Source of the DNA: a virus
Lineage: Duplodnaviria > Heunggongvirae > Uroviricota > Caudoviricetes
DNA length: 7,446 nt
Strand: one strand, 5' to 3'
Virus record (IMG/VR): IMGVR_UViG_2698536435_000009
How positions within the stretch are numbered: position 1 is the first letter of the stretch; each line of letters begins with the position of its first letter. Under the pieces are notes generated by a model. That model did no database searches. It was not told the origin of the DNA and saw only the letters and a program-made list of their open reading frames with translations. Of this stretch, positions 385-7,446 are shown piece after piece. Made by a program: the position numbers and the translations under genes.

Positions 385-444
385 CCTCACACAACCGCAA
401 AATCGGTTGTCGGGATTGGCGTCTCGGATAACATCACAACGCAT

Positions 445-466
445 AGCCGCGTTTGCGGTTTTTTTT
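445..466 (+). terminator. Terminator-like hairpin with U8 tract in the leader, about 55-75 nt downstream of the candidate promoter (possible attenuator or end of a short leader RNA)
   Basis: Short GC stem CCGC/GCGG (447-450 with 455-458, extendable by A-U and G-U pairs) with GTTT loop, followed directly by eight T residues (459-466). The stem is short, so this is weak. Confidence 0.3.
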
Positions 467-565
467 GCGTTAAGCATTGCCACATTCGCATTATGGTGGG
501 GCGTGCAGGGGCGGAGAAATCCGCGCCGGGTTTTGTGATGACCGGTTACGCCAACCCTGTACGTC

Positions 566-599
566 TCACCACCTCCCTGATTGGCGTCAGAGGTGGTGA
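566..599 (+). promoter_or_regulatory. Perfect 9-bp stem hairpin (TCACCACCT, 16-nt loop, AGGTGGTGA) immediately upstream of the Rha-family gene ribosome-binding site
   Basis: Perfect inverted repeat read directly from the sequence. The 3' arm is Shine-Dalgarno-like, and the hairpin ends 14 nt before the GGAG at 614-617. Confidence 0.3.
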
Positions 600-1310: not shown

Positions 1311-1481
1311 TCAATAAATCCCATCATTGCGATCAACCTCATCCTTAACCATTGATGCGAGCAGTTCTTCCAGTTTCTGCGCTGACAGCTTTACCTGGTG
1401 ATCTTCAGCATCTTCCCGGGCTATTGTGGTTCGCGCAGTGGCTGATTTTGCTGACATCACCACAGGGGGCAGACGGACCAT
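1311..1481 (-). CDS. Hypothetical small protein (56 aa, MVRLPPVVMSAKSATARTTIAREDAEDHQVKLSAQKLEELLASMVKDEVDRNDGIY)
   Basis: Part of ORF track 1311..1592, whose listed start is a TTG inside the palindrome module. The internal ATG at 1479-1481 has GGAGG 10 nt upstream. No recognisable family; it could be a gene fragment. Confidence 0.2.
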   Translation of the reverse strand: MVRLPPVVMSAKSATARTTIAREDAEDHQVKLSAQKLEELLASMVKDEVDRNDGIY

Positions 1482-1547
1482 TGAACCATGGCCTCCGGAA
1501 CAAATAAGGGCAAAAATAACAACCACTATCGAAAGCTCACAAACTAA

Positions 1548-1581
1548 CCGCAGCACGTTCCTGCATACGACGTGTCTGCGG
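1548..1581. repeat. Imperfect 11-bp inverted repeat (CCGCAGCACGT ... ACGTGTCTGCGG) at the 3' junction of repeat unit A
   Basis: Read directly from the sequence. It is paralogous to the perfect palindrome at 4656-4688 and sits in a conserved roughly 70-bp module that also supplies the stop codon of the tfa-like gene. Confidence 0.5.
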
Positions 1582-1595
1582 CATAATCCCAATGA

Positions 1596-1865
1596 TTACT
1601 CCCTGACAGGATTTGCAGGCCACTCAATATCAGGTGCAGTTGATGTATCAACACGATTCAACAATACCCGATATTTATTCCATGCCTCCAGCAACGATCT
1701 TTCTTCCTCCGTTGCGATTTCCAGATCTACAGCATCCTGCAGTGGCGCAATATACTCACTAAATTCCTGGATGTAGAACTGTGTGGTGACGGTCTTCCAG
1801 CCATTCGGCTCCTGCTGTATCGAAGCATACTAGGCTATTTCAATATCGCTATGCTGCGGCAGCAT
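1596..1865 (-). pseudogene. Tail fibre assembly (Tfa)-like short protein, copy A, inactivated by an amber codon at codon 12
   Basis: About 90% DNA identity to the intact copy at 3654..3923. Translation gives [11 protein letters not shown] then TAG (plus-strand CTAGG at 1830-1834, where copy B has CCAGG). The rest stays in frame and keeps the conserved Tfa C-terminal motif ([25 protein letters not shown]). Confidence 0.6.
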
Positions 1866-1921
1866 TTAACCCCTTGTAATTCATCGCCATAATTGATTTA
1901 ATTCACAAATAAAACTATAAC

Positions 1922-2373
1922 ATGGTGAAATCAATGAAAACAAACACAGATGATGGGGCTAAAATTTACACACCACTTACCCTAAAGCTTTATGACTGGT
2001 GGGTTTTGGGAGTATCAAATCGGCTTGCATGGGGATGTCCTACAAAGGAACACCTTCTTCCACACTTTCTGGAACATTTAGGTAACAACCATCTGGATAT
2101 TGGTGTTGGAACTGGGTTTTACCTTACTCACGTACCTGAGAGTAGTCTGATATCTTTAATGGATTTGAACGAAGCTAGCCTGAACGCGGCATCTACAAGG
2201 GCTGGGGAATCAAAAATTAAACATAAAATTAGCCATGATGTTTTTGAACCTTATCCCGCGGCGTTACATGGTCAATTTGATTCCATTTCCATGTTTTACC
2301 TTCTTCACTGCCTGCCTGGAAATATATCTACAAAAAGCTGTGTAATACGCAATGCGGCGCAGGCCTTAACTGA
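1922..2373 (+). pseudogene. Class I SAM-dependent methyltransferase, copy A, truncated after codon 150 by the IS110-family element
   Basis: DNA is identical to 3980..4431 of the intact copy and the homology stops abruptly at 2373. The ORF track frame (1922..2461) reads on into the IS, adding an unrelated 29-aa tail. Motif I LDIGVGTGFY is present. Confidence 0.7.
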
Positions 2374-3653
2374 ATCAGGGAACTGGTTATTCTCATTTTT
2401 TATTTGTGACATTGTGGTTGTTGTGCGACAGACATTGCTATTCGGCCCATATCCCAGATAAAACCCGCCAGCTCACGTGCAACAGCAACAATTGTAATAT
2501 TGACATTCTTTCCTTTGGCCTGAAGTTTTCGATACCTCTTACAAAGCCTGAGTTGAGCATCCCATGCTCTGTCAATGACGGGGCGGGGTAAATTTTCCTG
2601 CCTTTTTTGTATTGCCGGACTGATGCGTGCCGGATGACGGTAACTCCACGCTGCCTCGACCAATAGCTTTCTGGCATAGCTGTTTCCGGCTTTGGTAATG
2701 CTGCCCTGATGTCTGCTTCCACCCGATGAATATTCTGATGGCGTGATACCAAACCATGACATCAGTTGTCGTGGATGTTCAAAACGGGTCAGATCACCCA
2801 GTTCAGAAATTAATCCAACCGCAGTAATAAACTGAATCCCTCGCATGGCTTGCAGCGCCTCTACTACCGGATACAGCCTCCATTCGGTAACGGCCTCCTT
2901 CAGGGCGGATTCCAGCCGTTCACATTGTGCCTGCCGATCTTCTATTGTACGACGGTGTTCGTCAAAAGCTAATTGTCGCCAGGGACTTTCGAATGAGTAT
3001 TTGCTGAGCCAGCGTCGGTGTGCAGGGCCCCAATCTGCTCGCCCGACATAATGGACCCCATGAACCAGAAGAAACGATTTCAGACGTTGCCTTGCATGCC
3101 GTAAATCATCGCGGGCAGATGCCCATGCCCGGGCCAAATCCCGGAATGCCTCATCTTCAATGCCGGGTACGTAGACAGCAGAAAGATCTCCTGCACGCAG
3201 TGAACGCACAAGTCTGATGGCATCACGGCGATCGGTTTTAACCCGCTCCCCCGGTTTTTTCGGGATAAGTGAGGGGGCGCAGACCATGCAGTCAAAACCG
3301 GATTTCACCAGCCGACGATAAAGTCCATAACCACAGGGCCCCGCTTCATAAACGATACTGACCTGCGATGACTTTGACCTGAGACGTTTACAAAGATTCT
3401 GAATATCAGTAGGTGATGTGCCAATTTTACCCATCAGTTCAACAGGTTCTGAATTGATAGCATAAGCGACAGTAATCGATTCTTTGTGAACATCTAACCC
3501 GACGTACAATGTGTTATTGTTGTTCATGCTGGCCTCCGTGGTGGAAATACCGGGGTGTAGCAACAGCTCACCCATGCGGCTCTGACAACGATGTTAACCC
3601 GCGTTAAATATCCCACGTTGGCCAGCATCTGTCTCACGGAAAGTCATACTGCC
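2374..3653 (-). mobile_element. IS110-family insertion sequence (about 1.28 kb, boundaries approximate) with no obvious terminal inverted repeats
   Basis: Bounded on the left by the break in methyltransferase homology at 2373/2374 and on the right by the tfa-like copy B (stop at 3654, homology to copy A resuming at 3676). It contains a single DEDD-type transposase ORF. The right boundary is uncertain within 3528-3675. Confidence 0.65.
2400..3527 (-). CDS. IS110-family (DEDD) transposase, about 375 aa
   Basis: ORF track 2400..3575. The preferred start is ATG 3525-3527 (MNNNNTLYVGLDVHK) with GGAGG 7 nt upstream. It has the N-terminal YVGLDVHK motif typical of IS110-family transposases and the C-terminal ITAVGLISELGDLTRFEHPRQLMSWFGITPSEYSSGGSRHQGSITKAGNSYARKLL region. 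Confidence 0.85.
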   Translation of the reverse strand: MNNNNTLYVGLDVHKESITVAYAINSEPVELMGKIGTSPTDIQNLCKRLRSKSSQVSIVYEAGPCGYGLYRRLVKSGFDCMVCAPSLIPKKPGERVKTDRRDAIRLVRSLRAGDLSAVYVPGIEDEAFRDLARAWASARDDLRHARQRLKSFLLVHGVHYVGRADWGPAHRRWLSKYSFESPWRQLAFDEHRRTIEDRQAQCERLESALKEAVTEWRLYPVVEALQAMRGIQFITAVGLISELGDLTRFEHPRQLMSWFGITPSEYSSGGSRHQGSITKAGNSYARKLLVEAAWSYRHPARISPAIQKRQENLPRPVIDRAWDAQLRLCKRYRKLQAKGKNVNITIVAVARELAGFIWDMGRIAMSVAQQPQCHK

Positions 3654-3923
3654 TTACATTGTGTCTGGTTCTTCCGGCCACTCAATATCAGGTGCAGTTG
3701 ATGTATCAACACGGTTCAGCAACACCCGATACTTCTTCCAGGCTTCCAGCAACGAGTTTTCTTCCTCCGTTGCGATCTCCAGATCTACAGCATCCTGAAG
3801 TGGCGCAATATGCTCACTGAATTCCTGGATGTAGAACTGTGTGGTGACGGTCTTCCAGCCATTCGGCTCCTGCTGTATCGAAGCATACCAGGCTATTTCA
3901 ATATCGCTATGCTGCGGCAGCAT
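3654..3923 (-). CDS. Short tail fibre assembly (Tfa)-like protein, 89 aa, intact copy B
   Basis: ORF track 3654..3923. The C-terminal 50 aa ([50 protein letters not shown]) align with the C-terminus of the full-length Tfa at 6583..7110 ([45 protein letters not shown]). The N-terminal 40 aa are unrelated. Confidence 0.55.
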
Positions 3924-3950
3924 TTAACCCCTTGTAATTCATCGCCATAA

Positions 3951-3979
3951 TTGATTTAATTCACAAATAAAACTATAAC
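3951..3979 (+). promoter_or_regulatory. Possible promoter for the methyltransferase gene (TTGATT, 17-nt spacer, TATAAC)
   Basis: Hexamers at 3951-3956 and 3974-3979 in the 56-bp divergent intergenic region. The -10 element abuts ATG 3980, so the real start may be the second ATG at 3992 on a very short leader. Weak, pattern only. Confidence 0.2.
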
Positions 3980-4648
3980 ATGGTGAAATCAATGAAAACA
4001 AACACAGATGATGGGGCTAAAATTTACACACCACTTACCCTAAAGCTTTATGACTGGTGGGTTTTGGGAGTATCAAATCGGCTTGCATGGGGATGTCCTA
4101 CAAAGGAACACCTTCTTCCACACTTTCTGGAACATTTAGGTAACAACCATCTGGATATTGGTGTTGGAACTGGGTTTTACCTTACTCACGTACCTGAGAG
4201 TAGTCTGATATCTTTAATGGATTTGAACGAAGCTAGCCTGAACGCGGCATCTACAAGGGCTGGGGAATCAAAAATTAAACATAAAATTAGCCATGATGTT
4301 TTTGAACCTTATCCCGCGGCGTTACATGGTCAATTTGATTCCATTTCCATGTTTTACCTTCTTCACTGCCTGCCTGGAAATATATCTACAAAAAGCTGTG
4401 TAATACGCAATGCGGCGCAGGCCTTAACTGACGATGGAACTCTATACGGAGCCACAATTCTTGGCGATGGAGTTGTGCACAATAGCTTCGGTCAAAAACT
4501 GATGCGCATTTACAATCAGAAAGGCATCTTTTCAAACACAAAAGATTCCGAAGAAGGCTTAACACATATACTCTCAGAGCATTTCGAGAATGTTAAAACC
4601 AGGGTTCAAGGTACTGTAGTAATGTTTTCCGCTTCAGGGAAAAAATAG
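3980..4648 (+). CDS. Class I SAM-dependent methyltransferase (Rossmann fold), 222 aa, intact copy B
   Basis: ORF track 3980..4648. Motif I LDIGVGTGFYL (hh-D-h-G-x-G-x-G), with an acidic residue after beta-2 (LMDLNEA). No DNA-methyltransferase catalytic motifs (DPPY/NPPY or PC) were seen. An alternative start is ATG 3992. Stop is TAG. Confidence 0.8.
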   Translation: MVKSMKTNTDDGAKIYTPLTLKLYDWWVLGVSNRLAWGCPTKEHLLPHFLEHLGNNHLDIGVGTGFYLTHVPESSLISLMDLNEASLNAASTRAGESKIKHKISHDVFEPYPAALHGQFDSISMFYLLHCLPGNISTKSCVIRNAAQALTDDGTLYGATILGDGVVHNSFGQKLMRIYNQKGIFSNTKDSEEGLTHILSEHFENVKTRVQGTVVMFSASGKK

Positions 4649-4655
4649 CATCCAA

Positions 4656-4688
4656 CCGCAGCACGTTCTTGCTTAAGACGTGCTGCGG
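4656..4688. repeat. Perfect 11-bp inverted repeat (CCGCAGCACGT, 11-nt loop, ACGTGCTGCGG) between the convergent methyltransferase and tfa fragment C
   Basis: Read directly from the sequence. It is GC-rich but has no adjacent U-tract on either strand, so it is not a canonical intrinsic terminator. Confidence 0.5.
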
Positions 4689-4702
4689 CATAATCCCAAT
4701 GA

Positions 4703-4797
4703 TTACTCCCTGACAGGGTTCGTAGGCCACTCAATATCAGGTGCAGTTGATGTATCAACACGGTTCAGCAACACCCGATACTTTTTCTAGGCTTCCA
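4703..4797 (-). pseudogene. Tfa-like C-terminal fragment, copy C, with an amber codon at the conserved Trp position
   Basis: Homologous to 3654-3745 of copy B. It reads EA then TAG then [27 protein letters not shown]. The TAG is plus-strand CTAGG at 4787-4791 where copy B has CCAGG. Homology to tfa ends at 4797. Confidence 0.55.
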
Positions 4798-4798
4798 C

Positions 4799-5029
4799 CA
4801 CCAGCACGACAAGATGCCGCATACAGTGACCCAGTCAGTCCAGTTTTCAGACAACCAGTGCGTCACCTTTTTGAAGGCGCTTTAAAGCACGTTTTAATCC
4901 AGGTCGGCCTGTCCTTGTTCCGCTTAATTTATCTTCAAATATTTGTTCATATCCTGCACAAACAAGAGCGTTTCGTTGCAGGTCTGTATTCTGGTCATTT
5001 GTTGATACCCTTACATAGCCAATCAGCAC
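4799..5029 (-). pseudogene. pin: Pin/Gin/Cin-family serine DNA invertase, N-terminal remnant (about 77 codons) with in-frame stops, fused to tfa fragment C
   Basis: From GTG 5027-5029 (GGAG 8 nt upstream) it reads MLIGYVRVSTNDQNTDLQRNALVCAGYEQIFEDKLSGTRTGRPGLKRALKRLQKGDALVV, matching the Gin/Pin N-terminus including the catalytic Ser in VRVSTNDQ. It then reads TGA-KLD-TGA-LGHCMRHLVVLVVEA against Gin WKLDRLGRSMKHLISLVGEL (Gin sequence from memory). The resolvase C-terminus and the helix-turn-helix are absent. Confidence 0.8.
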
Positions 5030-5083
5030 GCTGAATCTCCCGTCCAAAAGCACAAATCATGCCATGCAGGCCAGAAACCGCCA

Positions 5084-5109: not shown

Positions 5110-5868
5110 CTCGGCACAAGCGGGGAGAAAATACCGTTACTCAGTACAGCGAATACCTGGACTAATCGACAAACATTCAGCGGTGGCCTTTCTGGTGAAC
5201 TATCCGGCAATGCTTCTACAGCTGCAAAATTAAAAACTGCCAGGAAAATAAGCAATGTGGCTTTTGATGGTTCCTCCGATATCACATTAAAAGCAAGTCA
5301 TGTTGGTGCGTTTGCCTTAGGGAAAACAGGAAGCACCGTTGCGAATGATAAAGCAGTTGGATGGAACTGGAGTAGCGGAGCCTATAACGCAACTATTAGT
5401 GGTGCATCAACGTTAATTATTCATTTTTATATGGGAGAAGGAAGTTGTCCTGCAGCTCAGTTTCGGATTAATTATAAAAATGGCGGTATTTTTTATCGTT
5501 CAGCCCGTGATGGTTATGGTTTTGAAGCCGACTGGTCCGAATTTTACACCACCAGAAAACCTTCAGCAGGAGATGTTGGTGCACTGCCGTTATCTGGTGG
5601 TCAACTGAATGGTGCACTGGGTATCGGAACATCCAGTGCTCTTGGCGGTAATTCGATTGTATTGGGTGATAATGACACGGGCTTTAAACAAAAAGGCGAT
5701 GGTAATCTGGATGTTTATGCTAATAACGTCCATGTTATGCGCTTTGTCTCCGGAAGCATTCAAAGTAATAAAACCATAAATATTACGGGACGTGTTAATC
5801 CCTCGGATTACGGTAACTTTGATTCCCGCTATGTGAGAGATGTCAGACTTGGCACACGAGTTGTTTAG
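5092..5868 (+). CDS. Tail fibre protein variable C-terminal segment (Sv, silent orientation), with no own start, ending at an in-frame TAG; the frame continues 5872..6018
   Basis: The open frame begins within the crossover site (NLGLRELGTSGEKIPLLSTANTW...) and covers ORF track 5257..5868 (GTG-initiated). It is Gly/Ser-rich and fibre-like. After TAG 5866-5868 the same frame encodes 48 more aa ending [17 protein letters not shown], homologous to the C-terminus of the minus-strand copy ([17 protein letters not shown]). Confidence 0.6.
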   Translation, partial: NLGLRELGTSGEKIPLLSTANTWTNRQTFSGGLSGELSGNASTAAKLKTARKISNVAFDGSSDITLKASHVGAFALGKTGSTVANDKAVGWNWSSGAYNATISGASTLIIHFYMGEGSCPAAQFRINYKNGGIFYRSARDGYGFEADWSEFYTTRKPSAGDVGALPLSGGQLNGALGIGTSSALGGNSIVLGDNDTGFKQKGDGNLDVYANNVHVMRFVSGSIQSNKTINITGRVNPSDYGNFDSRYVRDVRLGTRVV

Positions 5869-6020
5869 ACCATGAAGAAAGGCGTGATGTATGAAAAATC
5901 AGGCCATGTAATCACGGGGCTTGGTATTATCGGTGAAGTCGATGGTGATGATCCGGCAGTATTCAGACCAATACAAAAGTTAATTAACGGAACATGGTAT
6001 AACGTATCGCAGGTATAATC

Positions 6021-6554
6021 ATGCAGCATTTAAAAAACATTGTCGCAGGTAATCCAAAAACCGTTGAACAATACCAGCTAACAAAGAATTTTGATGTTAT
6101 CTGGTTATGGTCCGAAGATGGAAAAAATTGGCATGAGGAATTAAAAAACTTTCAGGAGGATACAATAAAACTGGCTTACACAGTTGAGGGAATAATTATT
6201 GCTATAGACAAGGATGTATCAGCAATTAATCCAGAAGGTTTAAGTGTCGTTGAGTTGCCTGATATTACAGCAAATCGCCGGGCTGATATTTCGGGCAACT
6301 GGATGTTCAAAGATGGTGCGGTGATAAAGCGAACTTATACCGAGGAAGAGCAAAGGCAACAAGCGGAAAATGAAAAGCAGAGCCTGCTGCAGCTCGTCAG
6401 GGATAAAACCCAGCTGTGGGACTCTCAGCTACAGCTGGGCATCATTTCCGATGAGAATAAACAAAAATTAACCGAGTGGATGCTCTATGCGCAGAAGGTT
6501 GAATCCACAGACACCTCCAGCCTGCCAGTAACGTTTCCCGAACAACCAGAATGA
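6021..6554 (+). CDS. Tail fibre assembly protein (Tfa), 177 aa
   Basis: ORF track 6021..6554. ATG follows 2 nt after the TAA of the upstream tail-fibre frame. It is paralogous to the minus-strand Tfa ([22 protein letters not shown] versus [21 protein letters not shown]) and ends with the conserved PEQPE-type terminus. Confidence 0.85.
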
Positions 6555-6557
6555 GAG

Positions 6558-6587
6558 AAGGCCCGCTATCGGGCCTTAATTTTTATT
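6558..6587. terminator. Bidirectional intrinsic terminator between the convergent tfa genes
   Basis: Perfect 8-bp stem AAGGCCCG, CTAT loop, CGGGCCTT (6558-6577), followed by AATTTTTATT on the plus strand, with a T-rich stretch on the other side for the minus strand. Confidence 0.55.
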
Positions 6588-7110
6588 CAGGCTTTTGTGG
6601 CCATTCAGGATTTGCCGTATCCACACGGCTGACCAGAACACTGTAGCGTTCCCATGCTTCCAGTCGTGTGCGTTCCTCGTCTGTTGCCATATTCAGCCTG
6701 ACAGCTCGTTCCAGCGGCTGGATGACTGATTCAGCTTCGGAAAGCAATGCGGCCTTTTGTGATTCGGCCTGTTGTTGCAGTTCCTGTTCTGTATATTCCC
6801 TCTTTACTACTTTACCATCCAGAAACATCCATTTTCCGTTATTGTCTGCGTGACGATTTGCCGTAATATCAGGAACTTCAACTATGCTTAGCCCTTCAGG
6901 ATTAATAGTTGAAACGTCTTTACTGACAGCAACGATGATGTTGTTCTCATCGTAAGCAATTTTTATGGTGTCTGGCTGAAAATTCTTTTGTTCCTCATAC
7001 CAGTTTTTGCCATCTTCGCAAAAGAGCCATACCACGCCCGCTTTTTTAGTTAGCTGGTATTGTTCCGGTGTTTTCGGATTCCCGGCCTTAATATTTTTCA
7101 GGTGCATCAT
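6583..7110 (-). CDS. Tail fibre assembly protein (Tfa), inverted paralogue, about 175 aa
   Basis: ORF track 6583..7146. The preferred start is ATG 7108-7110 ([11 protein letters not shown]) with GGGGAG 8 nt upstream, sitting 1 nt after the TAA of the tail-fibre gene. The C-terminus is [13 protein letters not shown]. Confidence 0.85.
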
Positions 7111-7111
7111 C

Positions 7112-7446
7112 TTAAACACTCCCCACGTTGTACCATATTCCCCCAATCAATTTCTGAATTGGCCTTCTGGCAACAGTGTCGACAATATCATCCGCATTGC
7201 TGTTAATTGCGGCTGTTAAAACATAACCTGACGCATCGCCAAAGCCGTAGTCGCGCCATACGTTTTTATATTCAATGCTGCCAAGACGAATATCCCGAAC
7301 GACATGATTATGCAGCCATGTGCTTAACCAGTTGTTTTCCCACACTGAACCATAAATATCGCCACTAGACGCAACTTGCGCACCACTTCCCAGCGCAAAT
7401 TGAGGTAGCCTGAGTTTAACGGACACTCCTTCCTGAAATAGAATGG
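7112..7446 (-). CDS. Tail fibre protein variable C-terminal segment (expressed orientation), partial, continuing beyond the right edge of the window
   Basis: ORF track 7112..7426 is only GTG-delimited, and the frame stays open to position 7446. The C-terminus ...[63 protein letters not shown] is homologous to the plus-strand silent copy but is not interrupted. Confidence 0.75.

Follow-up and report, generated by a model that had tools for sequence, protein, structure and literature searches.

The ybcY/tfaX locus of DLP12-type lambdoid prophages: probable methyltransferase cargo beside a chimeric tfa remnant

We analyzed a divergent gene pair in a 7,446-nucleotide (nt) stretch of viral DNA (IMG/VR record IMGVR_UViG_2698536435_000009, Caudoviricetes), which is referred to here, at its full length, as the window. 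One gene codes for a 222-amino-acid (aa) protein with the features of an S-adenosylmethionine (SAM)-dependent methyltransferase, and the other, on the opposite strand, for an 89-aa protein resembling tail fibre assembly (Tfa) chaperones. The locus is the ybcY/tfaX locus of DLP12-type lambdoid prophages, which is already catalogued and is borne by most lambda-like prophages of E. coli, and is not a new two-gene module. The explanation that we consider probable is that ybcY is a host-derived methyltransferase gene kept as autonomously transcribed prophage cargo, that tfaX is a recombination scar, and that tfa homology aids movement of the unit. The apparent module made of a Tfa-like protein and an orphan methyltransferase does not qualify as a new accessory or defence system, and in this respect the result mainly clarifies. 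It also places ybcY among the commonest cargo genes of E. coli prophages, nearly always intact and belonging to a conserved gammaproteobacterial methyltransferase family.

A preliminary description of the window had reported two open reading frames (ORFs) diverging across a 56-bp gap, and both were recovered as described, at 3654-3923 (-) and 3980-4648 (+). DNA searches of 5426 complete E. coli genomes found at least 80% of the 1.1-kb ybcY/tfaX unit in 3423 of them (63%), and inducible lambdoid phages were also found to carry it. The annotation of the plaque-forming phage PhiR26_1 names the methyltransferase YbcY and gives the gene order J, lom, stf, tfa, methyltransferase (opposite strand), short 'tail fiber assembly protein', hydrolase, ompT; the order is similar in phage 2G7b, with int beyond ompT. 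In K-12 DLP12, PhiR26_1, 2G7b and the window alike, ybcY is convergent with tfa and divergent from tfaX within a lambdoid prophage. The pair had been suggested to occupy a cargo position, and it does lie in the slot between the tail-fibre genes and ompT/int of lambdoid prophages. In addition, the methyltransferase and the 89-aa form have PHROG families of their own (2132 and 2341, respectively), each matched over its full length and neither with an assigned function.

The methyltransferase gene of the window is intact. Its 222-aa product matched phrog_2132 from residue 5 to residue 222 (profile positions 1-218 of 218; E=9.3e-156, 516.7 bits) as well as the Pfam families Methyltransf_12, 23, 25 and 11 (best E=3.9e-9), and was 98% identical to the main 222-aa E. 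coli cluster, which has 6589 members; truncated clusters also occur, such as a 161-aa form with 445 members. A protein search returned 2296 relatives, and 53 columns were invariant in an alignment of 42 family sequences from many genera. Given that M5 corresponds to the invariant methionine of these 42 homologues, most of which are 218 aa long, the true start is likely the second ATG at 3992, giving a protein of 218 aa. The gene is AT-rich, with a GC content of 0.41-0.42.

Motif I (LDIGVGTG) was located at residues 58-65, and an AlphaFold (AF2) model built from the 42-sequence alignment had a Rossmann-type methyltransferase fold with a predicted local distance difference test (pLDDT) score of 90.3. 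The protein combines motif I with a Rossmann-like seven-strand fold and is a class I SAM-dependent methyltransferase. The motifs [DNS]PP[YFWH] and PC[QE] were looked for in the 222-aa protein and neither was found, and the combination of catalytic motif IV and a target-recognition domain that marks a DNA methyltransferase (N6A/N4C or C5) is not present. Foldseek searches of the PDB returned phosphatidylethanolamine N-methyltransferase (8ys9), juvenile hormone acid methyltransferase (JHAMT), phosphoethanolamine methyltransferases and polyketide C-methyltransferases. The structural neighbours in the PDB also include some tRNA methyltransferases; there was no DNA methyltransferase among the top structural matches listed. 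These results agree with the preliminary description, which had taken the protein for a class I SAM enzyme other than a DNA methyltransferase, motif I being present and the catalytic motifs absent, and had considered a small-molecule, protein or RNA substrate more likely: every one of the top structural neighbours methylates small molecules, lipids or RNA. When PDB sequences were searched with a profile of the methyltransferase, only JHAMT was reached (E=1.4e-5), and a search of NCBIfam gave nothing above threshold. The solved enzymes compared with YbcY (7ec0 JHAMT, 8ys9 PmtA, 3ou2 DhpI, 4obw Coq5 and phosphoethanolamine N-methyltransferases) share 12-22% identity with it at template modeling (TM) scores of ~0.55-0.65, so that no assignment at the level of the substrate is possible. 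From the modelled fold, we infer that YbcY is a small-molecule or lipid methyltransferase, which is the best-supported reading of its class.

A species-level genome scan identified 80 methyltransferase loci. Tfa-like sequence occurred at only 8 of them, all from the Escherichia/Shigella clade (at least 98% identity); these include two contigs of metagenome-assembled genomes labelled Bacillus sp. and Planococcaceae, which are 99-100% identical to that clade and are probably contaminants. At the remaining 72 loci (at most 75% identity), which came from Citrobacter, Enterobacter, Klebsiella, Salmonella, Yersinia, Erwinia, Pantoea, Proteus, Pasteurellaceae, Pseudomonas, Xanthomonas and Dyella, no tfa-like sequence was found. 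The examples from Salmonella (STM1638 position), Enterobacter hormaechei and Erwinia amylovora are all chromosomal, and none of the neighbours called beside them is a phage gene. Homologues at 79-90% identity sit in islands or prophage-like remnants beside dinI, perC or insertion sequence (IS) elements, and no Tfa domain was found near those that were examined. A conserved operon partner was also considered and rejected: when 1333 neighbouring ORFs from the 80 loci were clustered, no neighbour was conserved across genera, and the best one, present at 16 of 80 loci, reflected lineage-specific synteny.

The Salmonella enterica homologue at the STM1638 position (8001-8663 in L005) lies directly upstream of cybB and of the gene for the small RNA (sRNA) RydC. 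This sRNA is an activator of cyclopropane fatty acid synthase, which is a lipid methyltransferase in its own right (PMC11340327). The presence of rydC beside this homologue is probably a coincidence, although it is the only functional neighbour that we noted.

The 89-aa ORF has a chimeric origin. It matched Pfam Caudo_TAP (PF02413; E=2.3e-26) over residues 31-86 only, which correspond to profile positions 75-130 of 131, and does not have the two-domain architecture of Tfa. Its C-terminal part aligns to lambda Tfa residues 131-191, and window positions 3676-3819 are 96.5% identical to the 3' end of lambda tfa at the DNA level. Residues 3-37 are matched by a different family, phrog_3893. The closest methyltransferase outside E. 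coli, that of Citrobacter freundii (90% identity), is divergent from an 80-aa ORF. The start of this ORF shares 76% identity with tfaX residues 1-37, and the remainder is unrelated to Tfa. The 80-aa family, which is gp28-like, is common just after the tail-fibre/tfa genes of HK225, mEp390, HK140 and Klebsiella, Erwinia and Cronobacter phages. The earlier observation that the 89-aa protein keeps only the C-terminal domain of Tfa holds, while the N-terminus, which had been called unrelated, has its source in the gp28-like family. As read from these alignments, tfaX is a fusion of about 35 gp28-like codons with about 54 tfa codons, a typical lambdoid mosaic joint. In the phages PhiR26_1 and 2G7b, the antisense methyltransferase gene separates tfaX from stf-tfa; in the window, tfaX lies between the methyltransferase gene and the insertion sequence ISSso6.

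Two further observations concern the site at which tfaX is found. A remnant of a DUF4376-type protein, which is a pseudogene in sequence type 131 (ST131), is present in the window at 1311-1592 (-). In one IMG/VR allele (L057), the C-terminal peptide of this protein (SAQKLEELLASMVKDEVDRNDGIY) is fused directly to the first 16 tfaX codons, which is a further recombination joint at the tfaX site. Escherichia phage vB_EcoS-733R5 (L177, 94-3240) has a retron-type reverse transcriptase gene, a Pin-like recombinase fragment and two hypothetical genes, and a gp28-like gene follows ~1.4 kb downstream of them. This layout marks the slot after the tail-fibre genes as a cargo/defence hotspot; ybcY itself has no defence signature.

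The two genes differ in how often they are intact. Viral contigs were scanned with a 30-nt anchor from the spacer, so that selection was independent of either ORF, and 63 distinct alleles were obtained with both genes wholly inside the contig. The methyltransferase was full length in 61 of the 63 alleles and tfaX had its canonical length (85-89 aa) in 32. The last 14 residues of the Tfa domain were replaced in 19 alleles, giving 101- or 110-aa forms, and tfaX was frameshifted in 4 alleles and truncated or deleted in 8. PhiR26_1 carries the 101-aa form, with a truncated domain, beside a complete 194-aa Tfa. The 89-aa ORF had been presented as one half of a candidate module with the methyltransferase; it is a chimeric tfa fragment, variable or disrupted in about half of the distinct alleles and only 61 codons long in K-12. 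The preliminary description had itself named two findings that would speak against a functional module, namely homologues of the methyltransferase outside phages without a tfa-like partner and an 89-aa ORF that proved to be a tfa fragment, and both are largely what we observed. The module is not borne out by the homologues at or below 75% identity, which lack the partner at 72 of 80 loci and have no conserved neighbour.

The spacer between the genes contains a sigma-70-like element on the methyltransferase side, TTGATT (3951-3956) followed after 17 nt by TATAAC (3974-3979), and a second element, TTAACC-16-CATAAT, at 3924-3951. A Shine-Dalgarno-like AAGGGG lies 5 nt ahead of the tfaX ATG. In a genomic SELEX (systematic evolution of ligands by exponential enrichment) study of K-12, the ybcY/tfaX spacer was listed as a divergent promoter site of the RpoD holoenzyme and as an H-NS site, and the ybcY element reported there is TTGATT-17-TATAAC (PMC3946193). 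In its promoter-like elements, the hairpin after its stop, its orientation and its atypical composition, ybcY has the properties of a moron cassette. LexA/SOS control was considered by analogy with dinI, which occupies the same slot in HK225, and was rejected, as no CTGT-N8-ACAG box was seen on reading the spacer.

Full or remnant tfa ends were present ~50-60 nt past the methyltransferase stop in 60 of 77 distinct downstream contexts, and in PhiR26_1 the convergent tfa codes for the full 194-aa Tfa. The conserved tfa 3' end is accordingly present on both sides of the methyltransferase, as two direct copies. In this position, ybcY would provide a clear example of a chaperone domain serving as a recombination handle in the shuffling of tail-fibre and cargo genes.

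The proposed sequence of events is as follows. A phage clade would have captured ybcY from a family whose other members, across Gammaproteobacteria, are single genes on the chromosome, and the gene would have come to lie antisense to the late operon, directly after tfa, within a cargo region that also holds ompT. It would be transcribed from its own sigma-70 promoter in the 56-bp spacer. Subject to silencing by H-NS, it would probably be expressed from the prophage in the lysogen as a lysogenic-conversion ('moron') gene, and YbcY would methylate a host metabolite or an envelope lipid. In this scheme, tfaX would be the joint of a non-homologous recombination between a lambda-type tfa and the gp28-like gene from which the methyltransferase had originally diverged, and its protein would presumably have no function. 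The resulting direct repeats of the tfa 3' end would let the unit move between lambdoid phages with differing tail-fibre modules. The window would represent a decayed prophage in which insertion of ISSso6 and recombination with a second allele left a broken partial copy beside an intact one.

A host envelope lipid or surface metabolite is suggested as the substrate because of the weak structural likeness of YbcY to phosphatidylethanolamine and phosphoethanolamine N-methyltransferases. We think it quite unlikely that such methylation alters phage adsorption or host interaction, and/or that the Tfa oligomerisation domain of tfaX poisons the tail-fibre assembly of competing lambdoid phages. If true, YbcY and tfaX together would constitute an unrecognised superinfection or competition function in most E. 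coli strains.

Several points weigh against the explanation by cargo and scar. The alleles counted above are distinct sequences from prophage predictions and not independent lineages. Crude ratios of nonsynonymous to synonymous polymorphism (pN/pS) on close alleles were about 0.35 for the methyltransferase and for both tfaX halves alike (~0.34 for the methyltransferase against ~0.36-0.39 for tfaX, taken as no higher), and are not discriminating. A good Shine-Dalgarno sequence is kept in tfaX, along with a full 85-89-aa frame in about half of the alleles, and some constraint on tfaX, or gene conversion from real tfa genes, has to be allowed for. The Rfam family IS009 (RF02111) matches 3697-3900 (-) with 129.2 bits against a gathering score of 117. 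Literature searches found no functional study of ybcY, tfaX, b0562, STM1638 or IS009, and no substrate, expression or phenotype data for ybcY, so that the mechanism is drawn at the level of the enzyme class. In a study of Hha, a ybcY mutant was without notable effect on Hha toxicity.

Part of this evidence could be taken to mean that tfaX matters on its own, either as a protein whose Tfa oligomerisation domain hinders fibre assembly of superinfecting lambdoid phages or as the IS009 non-coding RNA. Besides the match above the gathering score, binding of RpoD on the tfaX side of the spacer, the AAGGGG element and the pN/pS values could be cited in favour. However, the IS009 model is essentially conserved tfa coding sequence: its match in the window coincides with the tfa-derived coding sequence on the same strand, weaker matches fall on other tfa-derived segments (1639-1842 (-) and 4746-4825 (-)), and IS009 most simply seems to be the conserved tfa 3' coding region, with no independent RNA gene. 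The family would then flag every lambda-type tfa gene or remnant. A ribosome profiling (Ribo-seq) study placed IS009 among the Rfam entries that were set aside because footprints were expected, as for same-strand RNAs inside genes (PMC5331693). Moreover, nonsense, frameshift and 3'-replacement variants of tfaX are frequent, and its conservation can be put down to gene conversion by functional tfa genes; the 14 positions at which the two window copies differ all lie in the tfa-derived part. We therefore regard a role of tfaX alone as unlikely. A functional two-gene accessory module, in which the Tfa-like protein would aid or regulate the methyltransferase, e.g., by targeting it to tail fibres or for receptor modification, would account for the constant linkage of the methyltransferase, the spacer and the first ~75 tfaX codons within the Escherichia/Shigella clade, for promoter-like elements on both sides of the spacer and for the 85-89-aa ORF in half of the alleles. 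This linkage is, however, limited to a single clade (at least 98% identity), as expected from a single ancestral joint; tfa-like sequence is absent at all 72 more distant loci, the closest outgroup has a different 80-aa protein in place of tfaX, 31 of 63 alleles have a disrupted or altered tfaX with the methyltransferase still intact, and a viable phage has a truncated tfaX domain. Such a module is very unlikely.

It is likewise improbable that the methyltransferase is a defence or counter-defence factor acting on nucleic acid (RNA, tRNA or DNA) and not on a metabolite. A defence role had been raised in the preliminary description; tfaX matched no PADLOC-DB model, and the methyltransferase had no significant one, its best match being mad2 (E=0.0027, 14.6 bits). 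The catalytic motifs of DNA methyltransferases are absent, no nuclease, ATPase or other partner gene was found in the window or in intact unit-carrying phages, in many genera the homologues at 50-69% identity stand alone on the chromosome, and the best structural relatives at the sequence level are small-molecule O- and N-methyltransferases. That the whole unit, including the methyltransferase, is non-functional debris of prophage decay might be suggested by the heavily rearranged window, with its IS insertions, pin remnant and tfa remnants, by the K-12 ybcY pseudogene and by the truncated 161-aa cluster (445 members). It is nevertheless highly improbable, considering the full-length methyltransferase in 61 of 63 alleles, the 6589 members of the main cluster, the inducible, plaque-forming phages that carry the gene and the 53 invariant columns over 42 sequences from many genera.

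The features of the window are listed in Table 1.

Table 1. Position, strand and basis of the features identified in the window
Feature	Position	Strand	Basis
Partial second copy of the unit: tfaX' (W12 to stop), spacer, methyltransferase codons 1-151 to the IS junction	1618..2373		alignment
ISSso6 (IS110 family), between the two copies	2374..3655 (start/end approximate)	-	Pfam DEDD_Tnp_IS110, Transposase_20
tfaX-type ORF, 89 aa	3654..3923	-	ORF list, Pfam Caudo_TAP
tfaX 3' part, lambda-type tfa 3' end, C-terminal Tfa domain only	3654..3819	-	Caudo_TAP, lambda tfa
tfaX 5' part, codons 1 to ~35, from an HK225-gp28-like gene (phrog_3893), not tfa	3820..3923	-	phrog_3893 match
Divergent spacer, 56 bp, with sigma-70-like promoter elements	3924..3979		sequence, promoter scan
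ybcY-family class I SAM-dependent methyltransferase, intact	3980..4648	+	ORF, Pfam, PHROG 2132
GC-rich hairpin within the 54 nt that separate the methyltransferase stop from that of the convergent tfa remnant	4656..4688		fold
Second tfa 3' end remnant, 27 codons + stop, convergent with the methyltransferase	4703..4797	-	translation, repeat families D2/D3
Pin/Gin-type invertase remnant, 68 N-terminal codons, deletion-fused to the tfa remnant	4847..5053	-	Pfam Resolvase residues 11-68

The hairpin past the methyltransferase stop was the main stem when window positions 4640-4710 were folded (-23.9 kcal/mol, z=-5.35, with 0 of 200 shuffles as stable), and a further copy of its 5' arm and loop is present at 1546-1574, beyond the copy-1 tfa end. 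A terminator scan detected no canonical intrinsic terminator; the hairpin might serve to terminate transcription or to insulate the gene from it.

The pair had been described as duplicated. A second copy does exist, but not of the whole pair: copy 1 is partial, with a nonsense codon at W12 of tfaX, and is cut by ISSso6 after methyltransferase codon 151. Positions 1618-2373 and 3676-4431 are 98.1% identical over 756 bp, and the confinement of all mismatches to the tfa part of tfaX is consistent with exchange with other tfa genes. In ST131 strains, a prophage remnant beside trpA and an ompW fragment corresponds to the left copy and the right flank. This ST131 remnant has a single methyltransferase copy, equal to window copy 1, with tfa remnants and a truncated invertase as in the window; relative to it, the window adds ISSso6 and a second tfaX/methyltransferase segment of another allele (ending in PEEPDTM, not PANPVRE). 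Because the two window copies are different tfaX alleles, the arrangement is better explained by IS-associated recombination with a second prophage than by simple tandem duplication. The ISSso6 of the window is ~99.2-99.9% identical to the ISSso6 copies of the E. coli genomes listed, and suggests that the source was Shigella sonnei-like or an IS-rich E. coli. Relatives of ISSso6 are labelled 'RNA-guided transposase' in some RefSeq records.

Invertase sequence is found next to the pair, as previously noted; it is a 68-codon remnant that RefSeq annotates at the equivalent ST131 locus as a pseudogene without its C-terminus. The significance that had been attached to its proximity is lost, since the remnant was brought there by a deletion joint in the decayed prophage and no invertase is annotated nearby in the intact unit-carrying phages that were examined. 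Remains of an invertible tail-fibre segment occupy 5257-7426, with opposed C-terminal tips of fibre genes (5257-6018 (+) and 7112-7426 (-)), opposed full-length tfa genes (6021-6554 (+) and 6583-7146 (-)) and an inverted repeat of 159 nt with 71% identity (6021-6179 / 6952-7110). Given that the cognate invertase is truncated, this segment is probably frozen in one orientation. At the other end of the window, matches above Rfam gathering scores were obtained for the Hfq-binding sRNA isrK (391-465 (+), 72 bits) and for the C4 antisense RNA (489-576 (+), 76 bits), directly upstream of a Rha-family regulator gene (612-1184). The arrangement recalls control regions of the P1/P7 immI-like or Gifsy isrK/antirepressor type, surviving here in a prophage remnant.

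Compared with known systems, the locus is closest to that of the K-12 cryptic prophage DLP12 (ybcY-tfaX, b0562/b0563), which likewise has tfaD, ybcY on the opposite strand and tfaX, followed by appY and ompT, and shares the spacer element TTGATT-17-TATAAC with the window. However, ybcY is a pseudogene in DLP12 and intact (222 aa) in the window, and tfaX is a 61-codon ORF in DLP12 and has the 89-aa form in the window. The window also differs in its extra broken copy beyond ISSso6, and corresponds to another prophage remnant, the neighbour of trpA and ompW' in ST131-like strains. The chromosomal family, represented by Salmonella STM1638 near rydC and cybB, has 50-69% full-length identity to ybcY (50-54% in Pseudomonas) and the same invariant motifs (YDWWVL, HLDIGVGTGYY, FYLLHCLPG and YNxKGIFSN); its members are lone genes without a tfa-like neighbour.

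The two parents of tfaX can each be recognised. The gp28-like protein of HK225 (phrog_3893, ~80-99 aa) is homologous to tfaX residues 1-37 and occupies the same slot after the tail fibre and tfa genes, where its gene is divergent from the leftward cargo gene dinI; tfaX has kept the first ~35 codons of such a gene, whereas the remainder was replaced by tfa sequence. The conserved C-terminal domain of lambda Tfa is nearly identical to tfaX residues ~35-86, whereas the fibre-binding N-terminal two-thirds of Tfa chaperones (profile positions 1-74) is absent. North et al. reportedly found in 2019 (Nat Microbiol) that it is the non-conserved N-domain of Tfa that binds the fibre, and the tfaX fragment should accordingly not be a specific chaperone. 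In addition, a Tfa chaperone gene directly follows, and is co-oriented with, its fibre gene, whereas tfaX is not downstream of a fibre gene. For ybcY, the best parallel appears to be with the morons of lambdoid phages such as lom, bor and the ompT cargo. It would likewise be a single, promoter-bearing gene placed between the late-operon genes and the att/int end, and its moron-like traits include an orientation antisense to the late operon, AT-rich composition and, in K-12, binding by H-NS.

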